64,000 nucleotides of DNA from positions 24,297-88,296 of the IMG/VR virus record IMGVR_UViG_3300037245_003526; one strand, written 5' to 3'. A program made the translations under genes and the position numbers. Origin of the DNA: a virus. Below the pieces are notes generated by a model. That model was not told the DNA's origin. It saw nothing but the letters and a program-made list of their open reading frames with translations, and did no database searches. Numbering within the stretch: position 1 is the first letter of the stretch; each line of letters opens with the position of its first letter. This document shows positions 5,497 through 17,214 of the stretch, in pieces.

Positions 5497-6351
5497 TTAA
5501 AAATAGTTATTAGAATTAAAACCACCATTTATACCCTTATACATCATTGCTACAGCTTCACTTGTGTGAATACTTTCTTCATGTACACATTTGACAATCC
5601 AGTCAGTTACTTTATCATTACTATTTAAACCTTGCGCTATTGCTCTAATAGCGTCCTCAACAAACATCGGATTTTTCCATGCATGTTTAGCAATTGTCAT
5701 TTCATCTTCTCTTTTGATAATAGGATATGGAAGAACCTTAACTGCTTTTTCTACTATATCAACAATATCCTCCAACCATAATGGACCTTTTAGATGATGA
5801 GGATGTCCCTCTACAAGAACATTAGCAAATGATCTTTGTGCATGAGGTGCAGCTCCACGACCTTTTCGAGCAAGGTACATTACTAACTCTTTACTACATG
5901 GACAATATGACGCATATTGAACTCTAACTCCTTGAAAGAATTTAAATTCATCTTCATCCAAAAGTTGTCCTTCAAACTTACAATCATAAAATAATGGAAA
6001 CTCATTATCAGATTTTATTGACTGTTTTATAATTGGTAACTTAAAGTCAAATCTCATATAAACATGATCAGTTTCTAAATTATCCCTAAGATCTTTTAAA
6101 ATATTAAGGATTAATGATTGCTTCAATGGTTCATCAAGATACCCACGTAAAGTTCGTATGCATCTTGACATTGAAATACCCTTTATGTTAGATTCTAAAC
6201 TTGCCCTCATAGAAACATTGGCAACCATATTTCTATAGTTGCCGTTTCTAGATTGTAACATAAACGGAACTTCAACATTTTCAACTCCAACCTGTTGAAT
6301 TGGAATTTTTACTTCAGGTTCGCTTTGTTGAATATCCGGTAAATCGCTCAT
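5497..6351 (-). CDS. Hypothetical protein.
   Basis: 284-aa ORF immediately downstream of RNAP beta. Confidence 0.4.
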   Translation of the reverse strand: MSDLPDIQQSEPEVKIPIQQVGVENVEVPFMLQSRNGNYRNMVANVSMRASLESNIKGISMSRCIRTLRGYLDEPLKQSLILNILKDLRDNLETDHVYMRFDFKLPIIKQSIKSDNEFPLFYDCKFEGQLLDEDEFKFFQGVRVQYASYCPCSKELVMYLARKGRGAAPHAQRSFANVLVEGHPHHLKGPLWLEDIVDIVEKAVKVLPYPIIKREDEMTIAKHAWKNPMFVEDAIRAIAQGLNSNDKVTDWIVKCVHEESIHTSEAVAMMYKGINGGFNSNNYF

Positions 6352-6492: not shown

Positions 6493-9400
6493 CTACCTTT
6501 CTACACCTATGGCTTTTAAATAAGCATTTAATAATCTTACAGACTCTGGAATTATAGATTGTTCTTTATCATCTTTCATAAAATCAGAATCTATCTTTGT
6601 CCTTATAAACTCATTTTTCAAATCAATACAATCACTCTTAGTAGTTAGAAACTCAAACAAATTTGCAGAAGCATCATGACCTGTTAAACACGCCATTTCC
6701 ATTTCTCCGCTTCTTTGACCTCCACCATGTTTTCTTCCTGCTAAAGGTTGTAATGTTTTTCTTGCATATGATCCTATTCCTCTAGCTGATAATCTTGTTT
6801 CAGAAATATGAACCATTTTGAAAAAGTACATATAACCTACAGCTATTCTATTCTTAATAATTTCTTTTGCTATAGGTTCGTACACTTCTCTTTTGAATTC
6901 AGTATTTGTATATTCAAGTGCTTTTCTGGTAACATCTAAGTCTACTGATTCAAATGGTGGTTGAATTAAAACAATACTATCAATAAACTTCTCAGTAATT
7001 TCTCCTGGAAGCTGTTGATTAAATTGTTCATAATACCATCCACCATCGGTTCTGTCAATAATTTTGATATAATTAAGTAAGTATAATTTTAACATTTTTT
7101 GTATTTGAGCATCATCTAATCCTTCAACTCTTTTAATTTTTCTATCAAGAATTAATTTCATATATTTTCTTAAATCAGAAAGTGACATAGCTAAATGTAA
7201 TTCATAAAGCTGTCCAATATTCATTCTGCTGATGATACCCAGAGGGTTTATACATATATCAACATGACGACCATCAGGTAATTGTGGCATTTTTTCATGA
7301 GGAACAATTGTTGAAATTACTCCCTTATTTCCATGTCTGTTTCCAACTTTATCACCAACCTGAATAGGTCTGAAAAATATTGCGAATAACTCTACGAAAA
7401 TTCCATTAATTTTTTCATTCTTAATTTTGAATTTTCCTATGTTTGCATGTGTGTCTAATTCATTATCTTTGATAAACTTTATTGCTTCTTTTTTAGGAAG
7501 GTGTTCTGATATTACCCTTCGTAAATCAGTCTCTTTCTCTTGCTGATCTGTAATTTTTTTCTCTACCCATTCTTTATATTCAGGAACATCTTCATTCCAT
7601 TCATTAGCAAATATATTACACTCTGTGATATACAAATTTTTTCTTGCATATAAATTCTTTTCCTGTTTGAAAATATCAAGAAACTCTTGCTGATTAGAAG
7701 GTATAGTTTTTATAATGGCATATGTATCATCCTTTTTAATTCTATCCTCTCTAGTAGGTAGTGGTTTAAAAACATTTTTATCCAAACTTAATAAGAGTTT
7801 ATGAGGTGGAATTGTAAATGACAAATCCATATAATGTACTGATGTAAGTACATTATCATCTCTTAGTCTTTCAGATATTACTATACCATCCTCATAGTTA
7901 TAACCGTACCACTCCATTACAGCAGTAAGTAAATTTTTTCCAATATTAATCTTATTGTCAGTACAATAATTACTCTCTGCTATTATCTGACCTTTACTTA
8001 CTTTGTCACCAAATTTGACATAAATTTTTAAGACATCAAGATTTGAAATATATATCTTTCTATAAGATATATTAAAAATATCTACTTCTTCATTATCATA
8101 AGCAAGAATTAGATATTTTTCATCTAAATAAACTACTTCACCATCCTCCTTTGCAACTTTAACAAACTGTGTTTTATCAGTATATAATCCTTCGCAACCA
8201 GATTGAATCATTGGTACATCAAAATTTTGTAACATGATTGCTTGTCTCATTTGTGATGATGCCATTTGAAGTCTGGTTTGATCATCGTGCTCTAAAAAAG
8301 GAACCATTGAAACTGGAATTGAAATTGGTTGCTTTTCAAGATATTCATTTGTAAAACGTAAATTTTCATCTAACGGAACATTTGGAATTAAGTTTTGTAA
8401 CACTCCACAATTTTCCCTATCAGGAGTATCCACCGGACAAATTCTACCAAACATTGTATCATTAATATCTCGTAAATGCTCAGGTACATTTTGTTTATTA
8501 AAACCTCCAGGACCAACTAAACTCGTTCTACTTAACTTTGTGAGTTCTTCTATTGGATTTATGGAAAAGTCAAATTGAATTATATCTGAAACATTACATT
8601 CTGAAAGAATTTGTGTAGAATTTACATTAAACTTTGGTTGTCTGGCAGTTCTATTAGTAATACAGAAATCGAAGATTATTTTACTTACCTTTGATAATAT
8701 CATATATTCAAAACAACGTATTCTCTTGTTCTGCATGTCTGTATCATCAAAACCTCCAGATTCCATTGTATAGATTAATTCATCAAGAACAGAATCAGTA
8801 TGAAAAAACCTTGAAGTCATAACATCACACTTCATAATAAGGTCTAATGCAAAAACTAAATCTTCACCCTTACCTTTGGCATTATATTTTGAATAATGTC
8901 TTCCTAACTCTTTAATAATATCATCTTGTGAAGTTCTCTTATTTTCATCATAAAAATCTAAAATATCTTTTAAGAAAGCACCATACATTCCATCATTACT
9001 AAAACTATCAGAATTCAAAGAAGATAGTTTAAATTTATTATTCATTTCCTCTACACCAAAATAAGCAAACATTACTAAATGTAAAGGAACCTTTCTTCCT
9101 AAAATACTAATATAAGTATATGGTGAATCTTTTCTATCTTCAAAAACCATTATTTGAGTAACGTTGGTTCTAAGTTTTATACTCTTTCCTCTTGTAACAA
9201 CTGGAATATCAAAAAACTGAAACTGAGGAATTTTTTTCCTGCCATTTATAATTATATAATTATTATCAATAAGTTTTGGAATTTGTATTGATAAATTTAT
9301 TAAAGACGTCCCTTTCTGAAGTCTAATTGATAATGTTTTTTTCAATGTTCTGCTTATATCACCTGTAGAAAATCTTGGTTCCTTAAATTCACATTCCACA

Positions 9401-9552
9401 ACTTCAAAACCAATATCAGCCACAGGTGCTATAATCACTTTAATATCTTCTAATAAAGAACTATATTCATTAGCTCTTATATCAAAAATATTCTTCTCTG
9501 CAAGTTTATAAACTGGATTAGCTATATTCAAAAGTACTCCTCCTTTCAACAA
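6493..9552 (-). CDS. Multisubunit RNA polymerase beta-subunit homolog (set 1).
   Basis: It carries GDKVGNRHGNKGVIS (the beta C-terminal catalytic-region signature) and MASSQMRQA (an NMQRQA-like motif). 1019 aa. Confidence 0.8.
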   Translation of the reverse strand: MLKGGVLLNIANPVYKLAEKNIFDIRANEYSSLLEDIKVIIAPVADIGFEVVECEFKEPRFSTGDISRTLKKTLSIRLQKGTSLINLSIQIPKLIDNNYIIINGRKKIPQFQFFDIPVVTRGKSIKLRTNVTQIMVFEDRKDSPYTYISILGRKVPLHLVMFAYFGVEEMNNKFKLSSLNSDSFSNDGMYGAFLKDILDFYDENKRTSQDDIIKELGRHYSKYNAKGKGEDLVFALDLIMKCDVMTSRFFHTDSVLDELIYTMESGGFDDTDMQNKRIRCFEYMILSKVSKIIFDFCITNRTARQPKFNVNSTQILSECNVSDIIQFDFSINPIEELTKLSRTSLVGPGGFNKQNVPEHLRDINDTMFGRICPVDTPDRENCGVLQNLIPNVPLDENLRFTNEYLEKQPISIPVSMVPFLEHDDQTRLQMASSQMRQAIMLQNFDVPMIQSGCEGLYTDKTQFVKVAKEDGEVVYLDEKYLILAYDNEEVDIFNISYRKIYISNLDVLKIYVKFGDKVSKGQIIAESNYCTDNKINIGKNLLTAVMEWYGYNYEDGIVISERLRDDNVLTSVHYMDLSFTIPPHKLLLSLDKNVFKPLPTREDRIKKDDTYAIIKTIPSNQQEFLDIFKQEKNLYARKNLYITECNIFANEWNEDVPEYKEWVEKKITDQQEKETDLRRVISEHLPKKEAIKFIKDNELDTHANIGKFKIKNEKINGIFVELFAIFFRPIQVGDKVGNRHGNKGVISTIVPHEKMPQLPDGRHVDICINPLGIISRMNIGQLYELHLAMSLSDLRKYMKLILDRKIKRVEGLDDAQIQKMLKLYLLNYIKIIDRTDGGWYYEQFNQQLPGEITEKFIDSIVLIQPPFESVDLDVTRKALEYTNTEFKREVYEPIAKEIIKNRIAVGYMYFFKMVHISETRLSARGIGSYARKTLQPLAGRKHGGGQRSGEMEMACLTGHDASANLFEFLTTKSDCIDLKNEFIRTKIDSDFMKDDKEQSIIPESVRLLNAYLKAIGVER

Positions 9553-9932
9553 TCATGACCCCTTGAGTGTATAAGAAAATTCATCTCACTGTATTCTCTT
9601 GCTATTTTTCTCCTAATATTTTGCTCTATATTTTTTCTAACGCGTTCATAAAAATACTTTTCAGCATCGTATCCAAAAATAATATCACCTTCTTTAGTAA
9701 CCATATGAATTTTAGCAATAAGAATTTTTACATTAATTTTTTGCATAAGTGTTTGTATCAACGTAGCTGAAATATCAGGAGATAGAGCAGCAGAAAAAGA
9801 TATTATTAAAACTTCTGGTTCTAAAGATAATACCGCAATCTCAGAAACTATAGATTGATATATACCATTTTCTATAATCTGTATTTTAGTAGAACAATGT
9901 TCCTTAATTATTTTTTTAATTTTTTCAATCAT
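9546..9932 (-). CDS. Small hypothetical protein between RNAP beta-prime and beta.
   Basis: The ORF-track start at 10112 overlaps beta-prime by 170 nt. An internal Met (MIEKIKK) preceded by AGGGGAGATTTT at about 9932 is a more plausible start. Confidence 0.35.
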   Translation of the reverse strand: MIEKIKKIIKEHCSTKIQIIENGIYQSIVSEIAVLSLEPEVLIISFSAALSPDISATLIQTLMQKINVKILIAKIHMVTKEGDIIFGYDAEKYFYERVRKNIEQNIRRKIAREYSEMNFLIHSRGHDC

Positions 9933-9942
9933 AAAATCTCCC

Positions 9943-12672
9943 CTAAACTCGCTCACCACATAATATTTTATCCATAATCCCTTTATAAAGTCCTGGTTGT
10001 AATATCCCTTTAATAATATGTTTTTTAGGATTTGAGAAAGCAAGACCCATAAGCCAGCTTTCATATGAGGGGACGGTTTGAACGGAATGAAACTGAGGAA
10101 CCAGTTTTTCACGATTTTTAAGAAGACGCCATTTATAAATTCCTACCCACATTAATTGAGAAACTATACACTCAAAGTGAACATGGTTAATAGTACGAGA
10201 AGTATTATAAGTTGTATAAAGATCATCAACTAATTTTGGTATGTCAACATTTTTACCAAACTTATGTAGTAATTTAGATGCCATTGATAAATCACTAACA
10301 ATATCCTGTTGTTTCAACTCATCTACTTCTTCACCTTCTCTTATATTTGCAACTCCACTAGTATGAAATGTTCTTAAAACTAATTGAGTATTACATTCAC
10401 CCATTGATTGAGCAGCAATAATTCCAACAAACTTTGTTTTAAGATCCTCATGTAATTTTCCATAACAAGTATGACATAATTTTTCATTTTTACAATATAT
10501 GGGACTTCTAACATTTATTGTTTTTCCAATAAAGTCCATATAATTATCTTTTGTAATAAGTACTAACTCATCATCTTCAGACATCCATTTATTTATAAGT
10601 TGTTTAGCTTTCTTATCATCACGTATAAATACTTTTAATAAATCCGTTGTACCACAATCTTCAATATCATAACTCAGTAATAAATTTGCTGCTGTAAAAA
10701 TCAATTTTCTTGATAAATAACCAGAAGCTCCAGTATTAAGAGCAACATCAAGAAGACCTTTTCTACTACCATAAGTGGAATTAAAGAAACCTTTTGGGGT
10801 CAAACCACTTATAAAACTATTTTTAATTGGTTCAGGAATTATTTGACCATTAAAATTTGATACAAAACCCCTTGATAAAACTATCTGTTTAGCTTGATCC
10901 CAACTACCTCTAGCTCCAGATTCAATCATATATGAGTATTTAAATCCACTTCTTAAAATATCCATAAGGTCTTTATTCTCAGTTGAGATTTTGAAAACTT
11001 GTTCTCTTATGGACCCAGACGAGTAAATATCATCTCTGACAGTATCAATACCTTCGATATGACAATCATCGAGAGATAGAGTTGGACCGAATAGGGTTGA
11101 GTATTTGAATCCTACGAACTTGATTTTGTCCAACACCTCTGCTGTAGTAGCTAAATTATACTTTCGATTAATATCATTTAATATTCTAATCAATCCTTTT
11201 GAATTAGTAGGTTCAATAATAAGTGGATAATCTTCTGGAAAACATTCATTGAATATTTTAATATCCTCTTGAATAGTTTCCCCTTTATATTCAACTTTTC
11301 TACTTAGTTTTGGAAATTTATTATTAGTAAGTGCATATATACCAAGAACCATATCCTGACTAGGTGTTGTAGTTAAACTGCCATTAGATGGGTTCTTTAA
11401 ATTCTGAGTAATTAACATTTTTTCAATTGCTTCTTGTTTAGTTTCTTCGCTAATAGGAACATATATGGCCATCTGATCTCCATCAAAATCAGCATTAAAT
11501 GGTGGGCAAGATAATGGATGAATTCTAATAACATTATCTAAAGATATTTTAATATAGTATGCTAACATACTAAGTTTATGGAGAGATGGTTGTCTGTTTA
11601 ATATACAAACTTCTCCACTACATATTTCTTCACATAAGGAAAATAAAACTGATGAGTTTGAAGCTATACACTCATCAATAAAATCAATAGATTGATTTAG
11701 CAATTTAAACTGTCCTGTATCTATTAGTTTCTTTGCTACTTCAATCTTAAAGATTTCTAAAAATATAATATAAGGAATTGAACATTGATCAATGTTTAAT
11801 GTTGGATCTGGTACTATGACTGCTCTACCAGAAAAATCTATTCTTTTACCAAGTATGTTTCCCCTGATAAGACCTTCTTTTTTAGAAAGTTTTTCAAGAA
11901 TATAAGCATATAATTCATTTACATCTTTTTGAAGTTGTCTGAAATGATTATAGAATAAGGTATTATCTCTTCTGACATCAATCAGCGATTCTTCAATAAC
12001 TTCTTTCTTTGTAAGAACCTGCATGTAATACTTATTAATCTTATCTGCATATTGTTCACTTCTTAAGGATCCTTTAGTAGCAGGTCTTAAATCAGCAGGT
12101 AATACAATAATACGATCTATTATTAATTCATCAATATTATCATATACAATCTGCCATGGTGAATCTTCCTCCTCGTCAATTGCTTTCTCTGCTAACTTAA
12201 ATACAAGCTCATGTATAGCTTCTAACCCATACCATGCTTCTCGTCCTTCTTCAATTTCATCTGAATTAGTAACTATTAGATCATTATTATCCTCATGTTC
12301 ATCATCCAAAACAAGGACAGATTTTTCATCTCTCATTAGCTTTTTTAAAGCTTCTTTTAATGAGGTACCAGCAAGATCAACTACCAAATCATAAAATACT
12401 GGATTGACCACAGGCACCGGAAGAACTATTTTTGCAAACCTTCTTCTTCGTTCATCACTATTAACAACATCAACACTACATATATTACATGTACCTCCAG
12501 AACCAGATGTTCCATAATATGTACCGCATTGACATGTGTAGTTTTTTAGTGGACCAAATATTTGTTCGCTAAATAGTCCTTCCGGATGAAATTTTTTCTT
12601 ATCCATTACCTTAGTTGTAGTTATTTCAGGAAGGTTTTCTGTAAATTCTGTAAACTTTAGTAGACTCGGCAT
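9943..12672 (-). CDS. Multisubunit RNA polymerase beta-prime-subunit homolog (set 1).
   Basis: It has an N-terminal zinc finger (CQCGTYYG...CNICS), the catalytic NADFDGD, and a trigger-loop region IIAAQSMGECNTQLVLRTFHTSG. 909 aa, ending soon after the trigger loop. Confidence 0.85.
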   Translation of the reverse strand: MPSLLKFTEFTENLPEITTTKVMDKKKFHPEGLFSEQIFGPLKNYTCQCGTYYGTSGSGGTCNICSVDVVNSDERRRRFAKIVLPVPVVNPVFYDLVVDLAGTSLKEALKKLMRDEKSVLVLDDEHEDNNDLIVTNSDEIEEGREAWYGLEAIHELVFKLAEKAIDEEEDSPWQIVYDNIDELIIDRIIVLPADLRPATKGSLRSEQYADKINKYYMQVLTKKEVIEESLIDVRRDNTLFYNHFRQLQKDVNELYAYILEKLSKKEGLIRGNILGKRIDFSGRAVIVPDPTLNIDQCSIPYIIFLEIFKIEVAKKLIDTGQFKLLNQSIDFIDECIASNSSVLFSLCEEICSGEVCILNRQPSLHKLSMLAYYIKISLDNVIRIHPLSCPPFNADFDGDQMAIYVPISEETKQEAIEKMLITQNLKNPSNGSLTTTPSQDMVLGIYALTNNKFPKLSRKVEYKGETIQEDIKIFNECFPEDYPLIIEPTNSKGLIRILNDINRKYNLATTAEVLDKIKFVGFKYSTLFGPTLSLDDCHIEGIDTVRDDIYSSGSIREQVFKISTENKDLMDILRSGFKYSYMIESGARGSWDQAKQIVLSRGFVSNFNGQIIPEPIKNSFISGLTPKGFFNSTYGSRKGLLDVALNTGASGYLSRKLIFTAANLLLSYDIEDCGTTDLLKVFIRDDKKAKQLINKWMSEDDELVLITKDNYMDFIGKTINVRSPIYCKNEKLCHTCYGKLHEDLKTKFVGIIAAQSMGECNTQLVLRTFHTSGVANIREGEEVDELKQQDIVSDLSMASKLLHKFGKNVDIPKLVDDLYTTYNTSRTINHVHFECIVSQLMWVGIYKWRLLKNREKLVPQFHSVQTVPSYESWLMGLAFSNPKKHIIKGILQPGLYKGIMDKILCGERV

Positions 12673-12984
12673 CTATCCCCCTTTATTAAAATTCTTATTC
12701 ATAAACTTTGAAAGTCCTCCGATTAAAAGAAGTAAATGTTTCTTAACCTCTTTAGAAACTACTTCAGGAAGATTTACCAATAGCTCTTCAACAATTTGCT
12801 TAATTTCACTTTTCTCTAGTTCAACTTTTTGTGCTTTGACCTCCTTTTTTATTTGTTCCATCATATTTGGTCTTTTGACAAATACATTCCCTAATTCCCC
12901 TTCTAGTTTTTCTTCTACAATTTCTTTTAAAAGATTTTTTATCAAATCTTTTGTTTCCTCACTTTCCATGTTATCTCCCTTCAT
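12673..12984 (-). CDS. Small K/E-rich helical protein that ends in Gly-Gly.
   Basis: 103 aa with C-terminus ...NFNKGG. It lies immediately downstream of the E1/E2-like cluster. Confidence 0.4.
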   Translation of the reverse strand: MKGDNMESEETKDLIKNLLKEIVEEKLEGELGNVFVKRPNMMEQIKKEVKAQKVELEKSEIKQIVEELLVNLPEVVSKEVKKHLLLLIGGLSKFMNKNFNKGG

Positions 12985-13442
12985 TAAAAATAATTAATTG
13001 GAAGTCTTCCTGCTTCTCCTTCATATCTGATATATTTTTCATCAAAATCCGGCCAAAAATGTGGCGAGTTTAAATTCCAAATCCTTAACATAAACCTTAT
13101 TGCCCATAATTGCTGTTTTAATAATTTCTCTTTCCCACTAATTACCATTCCTTTTAAATCATCTGAAATACAAAAATCCGCCTTTTTACAAAAATATTTA
13201 AAGCTTCCGCTAACTACTTTTCCTTTTGGAATATATGAGTTTGGATGTGCAACATCATATAATGTTATTCCTTCAAATTCATTATCAAATTTATTATTCA
13301 CAAGAATATCATATTTACTTATAATATAATTTTGATGAACCCACTTAATATCATATGTATTTTTTTTCCCTGTATGAAAATCATCAAATCTAATAAGTGC
13401 AGGTTTAATTGTTTCTCTCATTGTTTGTAATATTTCACTCAT
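12984..13442 (-). CDS. Hypothetical protein. It is a weak E2/UBC-like candidate.
   Basis: The ATG at 13440-13442 overlaps the TAA of the upstream E1-like gene as TAATG, a classic coupled-translation arrangement. The track's longer start at 13478 is probably wrong. It has a mid-protein HPN motif followed by a Cys (AHPNSYIPKGKVVSGSFKYFC) at roughly the position seen in UBC folds. Confidence 0.3.
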   Translation of the reverse strand: MSEILQTMRETIKPALIRFDDFHTGKKNTYDIKWVHQNYIISKYDILVNNKFDNEFEGITLYDVAHPNSYIPKGKVVSGSFKYFCKKADFCISDDLKGMVISGKEKLLKQQLWAIRFMLRIWNLNSPHFWPDFDEKYIRYEGEAGRLPINYF

Positions 13443-14329
13443 TATGCACCTCCTGTCTCTGGAATTAATTCTATACATATTCTTTCTTCATTTATTCCTA
13501 TTGTGACTAAATATTCTCTATAAGTAAATACATTATTAGCCATTTCTGATAGAATTCTCATAACATCTTCTGGTGATTGTAATTCATGCTTAGAAATAAT
13601 ATATGAACATAAAGAATCTTCTTTTCTACCAACATAAATAGGTATAGAAGAATCTTTATTTGCTTTTAATATCGCAGGTAAATTTTCAAAATGTCCTGTT
13701 AATTTTTCTTGCCCCTCAAAAGAAATATCATAAATTAAATCCGGTTGATTTTTATATTTTTTAACAGCTATCTGAAATTTATCATCATCATCATCACCCT
13801 TCAAATCTATACTATATTTAATTTCTCTTTCAATAAGTTCCTTAATTTTTCCTGTTCTAACATGTTCATATAACTTAAATGCTGCTCTTCTTATTTCATC
13901 CTTTGAAAAATCACTAGTATAAGTACCCCGTTTTGAAGTACCATATGTTACATATTTATTACAATCAATAACTAACTTATTGAATGAAATATAAAATCTA
14001 ATATCAATATAACCACTCCTATCACAGCTTTCATCTCTACAATCAAAAACCATATCATATGGAATTCTTTTACATGTAGGTTCATCAAATTTTTTATATA
14101 TAGGGTTTACCAATAAATCATCAGTCCTATCTTTTATCATATCACAAAGCGCATATACTTTTTTACGTTTTAAATCTCTAACTCTATAAATAGAGTTTTC
14201 TAAATTTGATTTTTCTACAAAATCATTATCAATAAATGAAAGTTTTTGTAATCCCGGTAAATGAGACATAAACTCAGCGAAGAATCCACCTAACGAACCA
14301 ACACCTATTATTAATACACTTTTAGTCAT
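13442..14329 (-). CDS. ThiF/MoeB/E1-like adenylation-domain protein (E1-like A). Its nucleotide-binding motif is degenerate.
   Basis: VLIIGVGSLGG (GxGxxG), then IDNDFVEKSNLENS where canonical E1s have SNLNRQ, then DMVFDCRDESCDR (DxxDN-like). A GGGAGTG ribosome-binding site precedes it. Confidence 0.6.
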   Translation of the reverse strand: MTKSVLIIGVGSLGGFFAEFMSHLPGLQKLSFIDNDFVEKSNLENSIYRVRDLKRKKVYALCDMIKDRTDDLLVNPIYKKFDEPTCKRIPYDMVFDCRDESCDRSGYIDIRFYISFNKLVIDCNKYVTYGTSKRGTYTSDFSKDEIRRAAFKLYEHVRTGKIKELIEREIKYSIDLKGDDDDDKFQIAVKKYKNQPDLIYDISFEGQEKLTGHFENLPAILKANKDSSIPIYVGRKEDSLCSYIISKHELQSPEDVMRILSEMANNVFTYREYLVTIGINEERICIELIPETGGA

Positions 14330-14411
14330 TCACAATTCACTCCCTTCATATTTTATGATCCCCACTTATAAATAAGCAGGGATCATAAATACTTTTAAAT
14401 TTTAGCAACTA

Positions 14412-14915
14412 TTAACCAACTCTAAATTCATCTATTTCGCGATCGGTTGGGTTTGGTCGATAATAAGATTTCCAAATAAACTGTTTTAAAGCTATTTCCA
14501 TTGGATGTAAATATGGTAAATCATATTGTACATATTTTTTAGAACCATTTGTAATAACCTTAAAATCAATATTCTTGAATTCTCTTAATTTATCTACAAA
14601 ATCACGTTCTTCCTTAATAGTCTTTACTTTTTTTCTTCTTAAATCAAAATAATCATATTCAGTATAATCCTTAATTTTTTTGATTTCCAGGCTTGTGCAT
14701 CGTTTACCTAAAGCATTTCTCGCTCTTTTATATGCTCTTTTTCTTCCTTCTTTCTTATTGAACTGATCATATATAGAGCATATAGAAATACCTCGTGCAA
14801 CTAATAGATTAGATTCTTTTTCTAAAAATAAACACACCGTAACCGAGTTACCAACACATGGAGACTTTTCGTAGTAATAAACATCACGAATATCTGTCAT
14901 GGCTTTGTCAATCAT
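14412..14915 (-). CDS. Hypothetical basic protein inside the Ubl-like operon.
   Basis: 167 aa with a strong GGAAGGAGA ribosome-binding site. No clear motif. It contains Cys and a basic patch. Confidence 0.4.
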   Translation of the reverse strand: MIDKAMTDIRDVYYYEKSPCVGNSVTVCLFLEKESNLLVARGISICSIYDQFNKKEGRKRAYKRARNALGKRCTSLEIKKIKDYTEYDYFDLRRKKVKTIKEERDFVDKLREFKNIDFKVITNGSKKYVQYDLPYLHPMEIALKQFIWKSYYRPNPTDREIDEFRVG

Positions 14916-14977
14916 TTTCTCCTTCCTTTCAGTTGGGGTGAACTGTTATAGTCCACCCCATTTTATAAGTTTAATTT

Positions 14978-15466
14978 CTACAGTCCTACATCAATACCCT
15001 TACGTCCAGATGGTTTCATGAATTCAACATTGTCAGCGTCCTTTAAAATATAAGACGAAGCAACTTCTTTTCCATTAACCAACATCTTTGGAGTAGAAGG
15101 AACATTAAGAACTTCACGAAGAAACTCAGCAACAGCACCAACTTTTTTACCAACAACAGGATATTCACCACTTGAAGCTCCGCAAGAAACCTGTATAGTG
15201 CTTGAGATTCTTCCACTAGAAGAACCTGGTTTCGTCATTACACTCCTTACATTACACTCAACAGCAGTAACTTCACCTGAATTATCAACTTCTCTTGACA
15301 TACTTGCCGTATCGCGTTTTCTTGACTTCTTGGCAGATAACGCTTCAATAATTACTTCTTTCCTCTTTTTAGACATTCCAGGAACATTATGTTTTTTACA
15401 TAAATCTCTCAGATGAGAAACTGTATGTTTTTCCAATGCTTCCACTGTCCATTTAGCTTTACCCAT
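14978..15466 (-). CDS. SAP/Rho-N-like N-terminal domain plus a C-terminal ThiS/MoaD-like beta-grasp. This is the candidate ubiquitin-like protein.
   Basis: The N-terminus TVEALEKHTVSHLRDLCKKHNVPGMSKKRKEVIIEAL fits a SAP bihelical pattern. The C-terminus AVAEFLREVL...KMLVNGKEV...ILKDADNVEFMKPSGRKGIDVGL parallels ThiS/MoaD (TVxELL...VNxxxV...LKDGDEVxxxPPVSGG), but it ends SGRKGIDVGL rather than GG. Confidence 0.45.
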   Translation of the reverse strand: MGKAKWTVEALEKHTVSHLRDLCKKHNVPGMSKKRKEVIIEALSAKKSRKRDTASMSREVDNSGEVTAVECNVRSVMTKPGSSSGRISSTIQVSCGASSGEYPVVGKKVGAVAEFLREVLNVPSTPKMLVNGKEVASSYILKDADNVEFMKPSGRKGIDVGL

Positions 15467-15495
15467 TTTTCTTTTTCCTTTCTTTAAATGTTTTA

Positions 15496-16176
15496 TTAAA
15501 TTACTACTCGTTGTGCGGGTCTTACATTCATCATTTCCATATCAAAGTAAACTTCTGAATTCTTACCCGACCGTACATTACCTACTCCAACTAAGTCATA
15601 AAAATACCAGCACATTATAAGAGCCACAGTTATATTAGCAAATAACACTTGTGGCTCAGATACTGATAGTTCTTCACAACTCATTTGATCCGGAGATCTA
15701 TCTTCCGGGTTGTCTATCTCGGGATGATAGTCAGTAAGAGATGGTGTTATTTTTTTACCATTCTCTCGTATATAAATTTGCACATTTCCGTCAACAAATT
15801 CATTTCCTCCTGAGATTAAAACAACTTTTTCTAATGTAGTACAATAATCAGAAACAATTTTTCTAGTCCTATGATTATCTACACATAAAAATATGACATC
15901 ATCCTCTTCTATAATTCTATTGACATTCCTTGAGGTAACATAGTCTGTACATGTTAAAACTTCTAAATTATCAAATATTGCAATAAGATCTCTTCTCTTA
16001 ATTCTTGCCTTATTACCAAAGTTTGAAAAGGATTGTCTTTCTTTATTCCTTTCCTTGTAACTCTTTCCATCGATCAAAGTAATATTAAATTCACCATCAA
16101 TATAATTAACAAATCTGAAAAGGTTATCGCATAATGCAGAACCAACTCCTCCTAAACCTATAACTTTGATGTTCAT
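15496..16176 (-). CDS. ThiF/MoeB/E1-like adenylating enzyme (E1-like B).
   Basis: VIGLGGVGS (GxGxxG), then LIDGKSYKERNKERQ (a D..E.N..RQ ATP-binding motif), then DDVIFLCVDNHRTRK (DxxDN..R), then VVLISGGNE. Confidence 0.7.
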   Translation of the reverse strand: MNIKVIGLGGVGSALCDNLFRFVNYIDGEFNITLIDGKSYKERNKERQSFSNFGNKARIKRRDLIAIFDNLEVLTCTDYVTSRNVNRIIEEDDVIFLCVDNHRTRKIVSDYCTTLEKVVLISGGNEFVDGNVQIYIRENGKKITPSLTDYHPEIDNPEDRSPDQMSCEELSVSEPQVLFANITVALIMCWYFYDLVGVGNVRSGKNSEVYFDMEMMNVRPAQRVVI

Positions 16177-16191
16177 ATTTACTCCTTTCTA

Positions 16192-17214
16192 CTAAAATAT
16201 ACTAGATTCATCAGGTTCATCAGGTTCTTCTTTAAAACCTAATTTCTCTAATTGGTCTTCATCAAGTTCCTCAAAAATTTCCTGCATAAGAAGCTCTGTT
16301 TTATGCGCTTTATAAGGACACTGTTCACATGGATTCCATTCCTCATTTTTAATTCTGTAACCAGAATCATTTACACTTTCAGGTTTCAGTCTGAATGGAT
16401 TAAAATCATGTACTTTAAGTTTAGTTTCCTCAGGCAAGACTTTTTTAGCTTCTTCTTCATACTTGATTTTATCAACCATCTTTAACCATTTTTTTGGAAA
16501 TTTAATATTTCCGTCTATCACCCCCTTTACTTTATACCCAAGAGATGTCTTAGATGGTCTAACATCCTCTACTTGTTCATATTTTCCCTCCATAAGCGAC
16601 CATTTTTTATAAACTTCTCCAGGAATTTCAAACTCTTCAAGTTTGATTCCATCAATATAATTAGTTGGATCGCAAGTAAATCTTGTTCCATTTGCAACAA
16701 TAGAACAAGAGATTGATATTAAATCATTATTCATATTACCAACTGTAATATGAAGTCCATCAAAATCAACTTCATCTGTATCATCTGTTCCAGAATGAAA
16801 TGCTGACATTCCTGCGTGACTATGTATAGTACCTATCCTTTGATATCCTTTAATCTGTTCATTAAGATAAGCTACAGATCCACTACTAGTTTTCTGTAGA
16901 GGAACCTGAACTTTAAATTTACCAGATTTTTTATTAAAATGTATTACAGTGTTTGCCTCATTACTATTATAATCCTGATATACTTTCTTGAAAAAAGTAA
17001 TAATCTTTCCAAAATCTTCAGCTGAAATTCGTTTGATATTCATTTTTGCTTGAGGTATTATATCATCAGAAAGAAATGAAATCTTATTAATAGGTACTAT
17101 ACTTTCCATGAAACCTACTTTTTTCTTTAAGTAAACTTTATCCTTACAAATAATATATAAAACATCATCTGAAGGCATCTCATTTACACCATCATTTATA
17201 TGTACTTTAAACAT
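16192..17214 (-). CDS. JAB/JAMM (MPN+) family metalloprotease with a C-terminal extension.
   Basis: IHSHAGMSAFHSGTDD matches HxHx7Sx2D, with an upstream Glu. 340 aa, GGGAGGTG ribosome-binding site. Confidence 0.7.
   Translation of the reverse strand: MFKVHINDGVNEMPSDDVLYIICKDKVYLKKKVGFMESIVPINKISFLSDDIIPQAKMNIKRISAEDFGKIITFFKKVYQDYNSNEANTVIHFNKKSGKFKVQVPLQKTSSGSVAYLNEQIKGYQRIGTIHSHAGMSAFHSGTDDTDEVDFDGLHITVGNMNNDLISISCSIVANGTRFTCDPTNYIDGIKLEEFEIPGEVYKKWSLMEGKYEQVEDVRPSKTSLGYKVKGVIDGNIKFPKKWLKMVDKIKYEEEAKKVLPEETKLKVHDFNPFRLKPESVNDSGYRIKNEEWNPCEQCPYKAHKTELLMQEIFEELDEDQLEKLGFKEEPDEPDESSIF

Follow-up and report, generated by a model that had tools for sequence, protein, structure and literature searches.

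The stretch of viral DNA analysed here, which we call the window, comprises 64,000 nucleotides (positions 24,297 to 88,296 of IMG/VR virus record IMGVR_UViG_3300037245_003526) and carries two genes for proteins of the ThiF/E1 fold, E1-A and E1-B, in an array with genes for a ubiquitin-like protein (Ubl), a JAB metallopeptidase and two proteins with E2-like features. An earlier note on this DNA had pointed out the two E1-like open reading frames (ORFs) and proposed that they form an active/inactive pair hinting at a eukaryote-style heterodimeric E1. The coordinates held on checking, with both ORFs on the minus strand, and both proteins aligned to the Pfam ThiF model (PF00899), as the note had suggested doing, with scores of 46.7 bits over residues 3-112 for E1-A and 63.9 bits over residues 3-159 for E1-B against a cut-off of 28.1 bits. 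Conservation in E1-A was counted in 96 representatives (clusters at 50% identity). The two genes and their motifs are:

13442..14329, minus strand: E1-A, 295 aa, ThiF/E1 fold (Pfam ThiF, AlphaFold2 model), with an adenylation-domain fold at residues 1 to about 175 followed by a C-terminal extension
14288..14305, minus strand: E1-A Rossmann motif GxGxxG (GVGSLG), its Gly residues present in 100% of the 96 representatives
14192..14209, minus strand: E1-A SNLENS in place of S-N-L-x-R-Q, with Arg replaced by Asn and Gln by Ser (translation, alignments)
14033..14044, minus strand: E1-A DCRD, with D99 (95/96) equivalent to MoeB D130, the Mg/catalytic Asp, and R98 (87/96), a family-specific Arg
13445..13657, minus strand: E1-A C-terminal beta-beta-alpha-beta-beta domain, beta-grasp-like in the predicted model, ending ETGGA
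15496..16176, minus strand: E1-B, 226 aa, adenylation domain and crossover loop with Cys (Pfam ThiF, NCBIfam PRTRC_ThiF)
16033..16047, minus strand: E1-B NKERQ, N44, R47 and Q48 equivalent to MoeB N70, R73 and Q74 (HMMER alignment)
15862..15879, minus strand: E1-B DNHRTR, D100, N101 and R105 equivalent to MoeB D130, N131 and R135 (HMMER alignment)
15676..15678, minus strand: E1-B Cys167 (QMSCEEL), candidate catalytic Cys on the crossover loop, invariant in 36 and in 76 orthologs

E1-B has more than 1400 homologs, most of them more than 50% identical, and carries the Rossmann motif GLGGVG. In HMMER alignments its D36 falls on MoeB D62, and R47 and Q48 occupy the positions of MoeB R73 and Q74, in line with the reading of the earlier note that E1-B keeps N..RQ. 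The catalytic residues, R47 and Q48 among them, are at least 95% conserved in 76 orthologs, and D100 and K56 (the Mg Asp and the ATP-site Lys) are invariant. The DxxDN..R signature that had been ascribed to this protein was found in part: DN..R is present, but Leu97 stands in for the first Asp of DxxDN and a Lys for the second Asp of DxD. At the catalytic-Cys position, which the note had singled out for inspection, E1-B has its invariant Cys167 on a crossover loop of about 37 residues that follows the GNVQIY strand, where ThiF, MoeB and UBA5 also carry their crossover-loop cysteine; E1-A has neither Cys nor loop there. Inspection of the Arg-finger position, likewise singled out, showed that the N-terminal helix, which supplies an Arg finger in trans in MoeB, NAE1, SAE1 and BilD, is absent from both proteins, E1-B starting 2-3 residues ahead of strand beta1 and E1-A starting 3 residues ahead of it (MTKSVLIIG) in every family member. 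By these motifs E1-B is a complete minimal E1, and in the best-supported picture it would be the canonical activating enzyme of the cassette.

The adenylation site of E1-A is altered across its family. HMMER alignments to UBA3 and MoeB place N45 and S46 on the canonical Arg and Gln, as the earlier note had deduced from SNLENS, and D34, N42, K57, D99 and R104 on the corresponding canonical residues. The Arg, which in MoeB-type enzymes stabilises the ATP phosphates and which E1-A lacks, is absent from the motif position in 93/96 representatives; the Gln is absent in 95/96, with Ser in its place in 85/96, and the family motif reads [KR]-N-[LI]-x-N-S-[IV]-[YF]. Conservation in the pocket amounts to 100% for GxGxxG and D34, 96% for N42, 100% for K57 (96/96) and 99% for D99, with R104 at 76% (86% counting Lys). 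The Rossmann and DxxD motifs that had been credited to E1-A are both there, although Glu replaces the Asn of DxxDN. Two features had escaped the earlier note, namely the missing crossover loop and Cys, with a crossover connection of about 6 residues compared with about 37 in E1-B, and a C-terminal domain of about 115 residues that E1-B does not have. The AlphaFold2 model of E1-A, built on 34 homologs, has a mean predicted local distance difference test score (pLDDT) of 85.9 and a predicted template-modelling score (pTM) of 0.83. Because the phosphate Arg/Gln, the crossover loop and the catalytic Cys are all lost, E1-A as read from its sequence cannot form a thioester alone. It probably still binds nucleotide, since GxGxxG, D34, K57 and D99 are near-invariant and position 41 is strongly enriched in basic residues (K/R in 77% of the family compared with 13% background). 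Of the proposed active/inactive pair, the asymmetry stands and is family-wide, with Arg/Gln, loop and Cys missing from E1-A; the pocket, however, is not degenerate as in NAE1 and SAE1, the inactive subunits from which GxGxxG has been lost along with the ribose Asp, Lys and Mg-Asp. That E1-A and E1-B are recent paralogs was ruled out, the two sharing 17% identity over the first ~105 residues.

The C-terminal 100 residues of E1-A, predicted alone, fold into a helix followed by a beta-beta-alpha-beta-beta arrangement (pLDDT 85), which by weak scores appears beta-grasp-like. Pfam and PDB profile searches with this domain gave no match, and a sequence relationship to the Ubl of the cassette was ruled out (hhalign E 0.47). 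The family tail, E-T-G-[AG]-A, is strongly conserved, with Gly at -3 in 83%, A/G/S at -2 in 98% and Ala as the last residue in 94%. The Shine-Dalgarno sequence AGGAGG of the downstream E2-like gene lies in the last E1-A codons, and conservation of the tail as a by-product of this overlap was considered and rejected: across loci the codons for Thr, Gly and Ala differ by synonymous changes, and loci whose E2 gene is preceded by a Shine-Dalgarno sequence of its own still have the tail, so the constraint acts on the protein.

The essentially invariant nucleotide pocket and Mg-Asp, together with the enrichment at position 41, would also fit an E1-A that is an active, self-contained adenylating enzyme using a relocated basic residue, with E1-A and E1-B running parallel pathways. 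Its substrate could be its own beta-grasp tail (a fused E1-Ubl, reacting in trans within a homodimer) or another C-terminus, and the coupled E2-like protein could use its Cys to attack the acyl-adenylate directly, in the manner of Bub- and CBASS-type systems. In 94% of the family one of four nearby positions is basic, R98 and R111 are family-specific conserved basic residues, and the small-residue tail is conserved at the protein level; the closest relatives of E1-A, moreover, are Cap2 E1 domains, which conjugate a whole enzyme via its C-terminus, and BubCD shows that an E1 can do without a catalytic Cys (PMC11601596). The earlier note would have taken its pair as refuted if E1-A kept all the ATP-binding residues in shifted positions; a K/R at the shifted position 41 occurs in most of the family but not in the window copy, which has Ser41 together with Lys40, Glu44 and Asn45, so that the relocated basic residue is not fixed in place. 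Furthermore, E1-A is without the crossover loop, which in known E1s clamps the tail of the Ubl, and its terminal residue is Ala, not Gly. We regard an autonomously active E1-A as quite improbable.

Four further genes of the array are:

14978..15466, minus strand: Ubl with an N-terminal HeH/Rho_N-like domain, a low-complexity linker and a C-terminal ThiS/MoaD/TGS-like beta-grasp (ortholog profile matches)
16192..17214, minus strand: JAB/JAMM metallopeptidase, with an alpha+beta domain at the N-terminus and a CxxC at the C-terminus (motif, NCBIfam)
17207..19792, minus strand: 861-aa protein with a Prok-E2_D/PRTRC_B-like E2 domain at residues ~160-235 (ortholog profile matches)
12984..13442, minus strand: 152-aa E2-like protein with HPN (13239-13247) and Cys91 (13170-13172) (motif, weak profile matches)

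Among 67 Ubl orthologs, Rho_N was matched by 54, TGS by 46 and ThiS by 39. The Ubl of the window ends in ...KPSGRKG followed by IDVGL, and about 70% of its orthologs stop exactly at ...G[KRS]KG, the remainder carrying 1-5 extra residues. Three relatives depart from a single Ubl gene of this form: in one, three Ubl-like genes lie in tandem between E1-B and E1-A (L073:983-2356), another has an additional Ubl-like ORF upstream of the big E2-domain protein (L039:4259-4585), and in a third the N-terminal part of Ubl (HeH and the start of the beta-grasp) appears fused in frame to E1-A in a protein of 409 aa (L063:8727-9956). The last is probably a frameshift or assembly artefact, because the Ubl C-terminus is missing. 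In the JAB protein, HxHx7SxxD was found in 74/74 orthologs and E86 is conserved; the match to Pfam Prok-JAB is weak, and NCBIfam PRTRC protein A is matched at 1.9e-9 over residues 18-177. Its C-terminal CxxC (NPCEQCPY; C296 and C299 at least 90% conserved) is followed by an acidic tail (window 16192-16330, minus strand), and in some relatives this region is expanded to hold several CxxC pairs, the protein then reaching up to 590 aa.

The stop region of the 861-aa protein overlaps the JAB start. Its E2 domain carries LPN-x7-C, in which N181 and C189 are invariant, and in hhalign comparisons this LPN..C falls on the HPN-x7-C of E2s. Among its orthologs, 27/34 match PF14460 (Prok-E2_D), the best at 2.2e-6 and all below the 25-bit cut-off (at most 22 bits), and 2/10 match TIGR03737 (PRTRC protein B); the remaining ~600 residues of the protein match nothing, and the window copy itself is unannotated. 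In the 152-aa protein, H66 and C91 are invariant across 67 orthologs and P67/N68 are at least 90% conserved. The top non-designed PDB matches of its profile are E2s aligned at HPN..C, although weakly (E 0.3-1.5), UQ_con is the Pfam family matched most often (4/67 members, best 0.0059), and hhalign against four eukaryotic E2s gave E 2e-4 with a probability of 46% over 81 columns. As these sub-threshold matches are mutually consistent, we call the 152-aa protein a probable E2 on the strength of its sequence. Neither it nor the Ubl gave a match to PRTRC C/B/E/F. The ATG of the E2-like gene overlaps the stop codon of E1-A (TAATG) in the window and in many relatives. The spacing from HPN to Cys is 8 in most orthologs and 22 in the window and its closest relatives because of a 14-residue insert, and in the window protein (13170-13247, minus strand) this insert holds a second Cys (KYFCKK).

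Gene families were mapped with hidden Markov models (HMMs) on 86 related loci, taken from five contig look-ups and an IMG/VR scan, and on the window (n=87). The gene order was kept in 82/87 loci: a protein of the 855-aa class, JAB, E1-B, a Ubl of ~160 aa, 0-3 variable small genes and E1-A, followed downstream by the E2-like protein of ~150 aa, a protein of ~100 aa and then RNA polymerase beta' and beta. The E1-B module was present in 35/35 E1-A-centred loci with enough upstream sequence. That E1-A was never seen without E1-B is unexpected for an autonomous E1-A pathway and speaks for an obligate partnership of the two proteins. Five of the 87 loci, representing approximately two lineages, keep the big protein, JAB, E1-B and Ubl without an E1-A within 8 kb, and this pattern counts against such an obligate partnership; taken together, the two observations fit a second module that depends on the first. 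In these five (L033, L035, L059, L071 and L082; 8.7-14 kb), the downstream place of E1-A and the E2-like gene is taken by other genes, which include those for PP-loop (QueC-like 'SGGADS') and ThyX-like proteins. A pattern-based scan for E1-A, which needed exact motif matches and ran on partial contigs, did not return the five contigs.

The sequence affinities of the two E1-like proteins also diverge. Against the CBASS (an anti-phage signalling system based on cyclic oligonucleotides) E1-E2 (Cap2) model of PADLOC, E1-A scored 1.9e-10 and E1-B 6.6e-5; in structure comparison the E1-A fold was closest to the Cap2 E1, and E1-B matched NCBIfam PRTRC_ThiF at 2.2e-10 over nearly its full length. Together with the gene coupling, these matches point to two linked modules, one centred on E1-B and PRTRC/6d-like, the other composed of E1-A and the E2-like protein and Cap2-like.

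We therefore favour, at a probability of roughly 45%, a tentative reading in which E1-A and E1-B are not duplicates but the E1-fold parts of two linked modules in a phage Ubl-conjugation cassette. The domain content, motif conservation, synteny and gene coupling are as reported above; the enzymatic steps, the dependence of the second module on E1-B and any physical contact between E1-A and E1-B are what we infer. The first module would comprise the 861-aa protein with its Prok-E2_D-type E2 domain, JAB, E1-B and Ubl. E1-B would adenylate the C-terminal Gly of the HeH-beta-grasp Ubl and take the Ubl onto Cys167, JAB would trim short C-terminal extensions of Ubl (IDVGL in the window) and reverse conjugates, and the Ubl would be accepted by an E2-like Cys. 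The second module would consist of E1-A and the translationally coupled HPN-Cys E2-like protein, possibly a split and rearranged Cap2-type E1/E2 pair. Since its pocket is kept but no thioester is possible alone, E1-A would most likely act as an E2-bound, nucleotide-binding adaptor with E1-B as the source of the activated Ubl on which it depends. The beta-grasp and the G-[AG]-A tail of E1-A may provide a dock for the E2 like that of a ubiquitin-fold domain (UFD), or the tail may enter an adenylation site.

Several points weigh against this two-module reading. Any E1-A:E2 or E1-A:E1-B contact is hypothetical, and both E2 assignments lie below curated thresholds. The contigs of the five loci without E1-A are partial, and the gene may for that reason lie elsewhere in those genomes. 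Finally, the near-perfect pocket of E1-A and the basic position 41 of its family could mean that E1-A has catalytic activity of its own.

The heterodimer proposed in the earlier note would instead make E1-A and E1-B an obligate pair like NAE1-UBA3 or SAE1-UBA2, with E1-B active and carrying the Cys and E1-A inactive. E1-A would add a UFD-like beta-grasp that recruits the coupled E2, so that an inactive adenylation domain (IAD)-active adenylation domain (AAD)-Cys-UFD layout would arise from two phage genes. Beyond the constant company of the two genes, the family-wide asymmetry between them is consistent with such a pair, as is the combination of a C-terminal beta-grasp-like domain in E1-A with an adjacent E2-like gene; an active HPN-Cys E2 beside the Cys-less E1-A needs a source of activated Ubl, and bacterial BilD offers an existing example of an IAD/AAD pseudo-dimer (PMC10557695). 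What argues against the heterodimer is, in addition to the five loci without E1-A, that GxGxxG, D34, K57 and D99 of E1-A are 99-100% kept, that neither protein has the N-terminal Arg-finger helix, and that the two genes are separated by Ubl and a variable insert, each being coupled to other partners. PRTRC-type relatives of E1-B, moreover, work with a single E1 gene, and the strongly conserved G-[AG]-A end is not a feature of UFDs. An obligate heterodimer is thus possible but on the unlikely side, and we consider plainly unlikely its fuller form, namely a split E1 (an inactive domain with a UFD-like beta-grasp in E1-A, an active domain with Cys in E1-B) that feeds two E2-like enzymes from the jumbo-phage core.

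The surroundings of the cassette bear on another explanation, that it is a sulfur carrier system of the ThiS/MoaD-ThiF/MoeB type for a cofactor or for nucleoside or DNA thio-modification, in which the two E1s would act at two carrier steps. For both E1s the best-named matches by sequence are ThiF/MoeB, and the Ubl matches ThiS and MoaD profiles; a radical SAM gene lies nearby in the window and QueC-like genes lie nearby in relatives. However, the ThiF/MoeB equivalog model matches all fall far below their cut-offs, the array showed neither a rhodanese nor a cysteine desulfurase, and the Ubl has a HeH domain of nucleic-acid-binding type and often carries extensions past the Gly that need trimming. 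Above all, the same array holds two E2-like proteins with invariant Cys residues and an active-looking JAB, and because of these a pure sulfur-carrier role is highly improbable.

The remaining genes of the cassette and those downstream of it are:

14412..14915, minus strand: 167-aa gene in the variable slot between Ubl and E1-A, found in 29/87 loci
12673..12984, minus strand: 103-aa Lys/Glu-rich small protein after the E2-like gene, at the same position in most loci (HMM)
6493-12672, minus strand: unsplit genes for RNA polymerase beta' (909 aa) and beta (1019 aa), downstream of the cassette

The slot between Ubl and E1-A holds 0-3 different small genes in the other loci, and a family match was not found for the 103-aa protein. 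The RNA polymerase beta' and beta genes, which are much shorter than their bacterial counterparts, encode proteins ~28% identical to their best matches in the GenBank phage collection, and relatives carry one to three small genes between the two. After RNA polymerase beta, L003 has a gene for GTP cyclohydrolase I (GCHY-1), a position occupied in the window by the ORF at 5497-6351. Directly upstream of the cassette lie the radical SAM gene (343 aa) and a small gene of WYL_2-like type (window 20346-21978, minus strand), with an SbcC/SMC-like gene further upstream by synteny with L001, L003, L004 and L006. The ORF at 21992-22690 (minus strand) belongs to a family sharing a near-identical N-terminal 'K..F(V/I)TNSSSTSF' motif, of which L082 has several paralogous copies (L082:11161-15062). 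A promoter and terminator scan gave signal at background level.

The window is AT-rich (~30% GC), and nearly every long ORF is on the minus strand. Exact or near-exact copies of the cassette proteins occur on metagenomic contigs of 55-245 kb and relatives on contigs of up to 306 kb, and we attribute the DNA to an uncultivated jumbo phage. A megablast search did not find a near-identical annotated phage, and the nearest ThiF genes of GenBank phages are 27% identical and lie in another gene context. A fold search in BFVD returned only generic viral ThiF matches with template-modelling (TM) scores below 0.5. In the literature searched we found no description of a jumbo-phage E1/E2/Ubl/JAB cassette, and neither that literature nor the viral structure set held an E1-fold protein with this motif variant, an appended beta-grasp and a G-[AG]-A end.

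Ubl conjugation in the bacterial world has up to now been studied chiefly as host anti-phage defence (CBASS Cap2/Cap3, Bil, Bub) or as sulfur transfer. The phage block described here, with two E1-fold and two E2-like proteins, a JAB and a HeH-Ubl, belongs to the syntenic core of a large group with genomes of 200-300 kb, and if it conjugates proteins it would represent a phage-side use of Ubl chemistry. Its position suggests a possible, unproven link to transcription, to genome handling or to the assembly of virions. The two unequal E1s also amount to a natural experiment on the division of labour in E1 enzymes, the options being a pair split into inactive and active partners, an E1 that lacks the Cys and serves as adaptor to an E2, or an E1 fused with a Ubl. 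Were the heterodimer to be true, it would be a viral, split version of an architecture thought to mark eukaryotic and Bil-type E1s and would explain how an apparently active E2 is loaded beside the Cys-less E1-A.

Inactive/active adenylation pairs, both as eukaryotic heterodimers and as the fused BilD pseudo-dimer, are already known, as are the PRTRC/6d and Cap2 systems. Unlike the inactive halves of eukaryotic NAE1/APPBP1-UBA3 and SAE1-UBA2, E1-A has retained GxGxxG together with the ribose Asp, Lys and Mg-Asp. The phage proteins also lack the N-terminal Arg-finger helix and the CYS domain, with only a short loop in E1-B; the beta-grasp sits on the Cys-less subunit and ends in G-[AG]-A, and the two genes are not adjacent. 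The MoeB-MoaD and ThiF-ThiS systems resemble the cassette in the minimal size of E1-B, in an ATP site that matches residue for residue (equivalents of MoeB D62, N70, R73, Q74, D130 and R135) and in a beta-grasp carrier with a terminal Gly. In contrast to them, the phage cassette has E2-like proteins and a JAB, and is without the CxxC zinc motifs, the N-terminal Arg-finger helix and sulfur-transfer partners.

CBASS Cap2 joins an E2 at the N-terminus and an E1 with catalytic Cys at the C-terminus in one polypeptide, encoded next to a CD-NTase. In the phage, by comparison with Cap2/Cap3, E1 and E2 are separate genes in reversed order (E1 then E2), and E1-A, which has an extra beta-grasp-like domain, is without Arg, crossover loop and Cys; a CD-NTase is absent from the cassette array. 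For an E1 without catalytic Cys there is a precedent in BubCD, in which the Ubl is passed directly to the E2 (PMC11601596). BilD, from Type II BilABCD anti-phage operons, joins an inactive and an active adenylation domain in one polypeptide as a pseudo-dimer, with the Arg finger contributed by the inactive domain and an inserted CYS domain of 80 residues, and serves host defence (PMC10557695). Like the phage cassette, its operon combines an E1 with an E2, a JAB deubiquitinase and a Ubl whose Gly precedes extra residues removed by that deubiquitinase (PMC10557695). E1-B, however, matches the BilD model only at E 0.037, and the phage proteins are separate, minimal and phage-encoded.

The known arrangement closest to the first module is operon type 6d of Iyer, Burroughs and Aravind, which combines a Ubl, a JAB with JAB-N, an E1, an E2 lacking the His of HPN and a helical protein (PMC1779556). 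The best named matches of E1-B, JAB and the 861-aa E2 domain are PRTRC_ThiF, PRTRC_A and Prok-E2_D/PRTRC_B, respectively, and the phage E2 likewise has LPN rather than HPN, alongside a Ubl with a terminal Gly and a small, fast-evolving, helical-looking protein. These matches fall far below the curated cut-offs (E1-B 40.3 vs 144.75 bits for TIGR03736; JAB 37.3 vs 101.8 for TIGR03735; the 861-aa E2 domain at most 22 vs 25 bits for PF14460 and 13.9 vs 131 for TIGR03737) and so indicate, by sequence score, that the three proteins are only distant relatives of PRTRC. No ParB was noticed among the called genes of related loci, in which no search aimed at ParB was made. In contrast to the PRTRC/6d systems, the E2 domain of the phage is fused to a region of ~600 residues, a HeH domain is part of the Ubl, the set is enlarged by another E1-like protein and by another E2-like protein of HPN type, and the whole cassette is set in the jumbo-phage core region beside the RNA polymerase genes.

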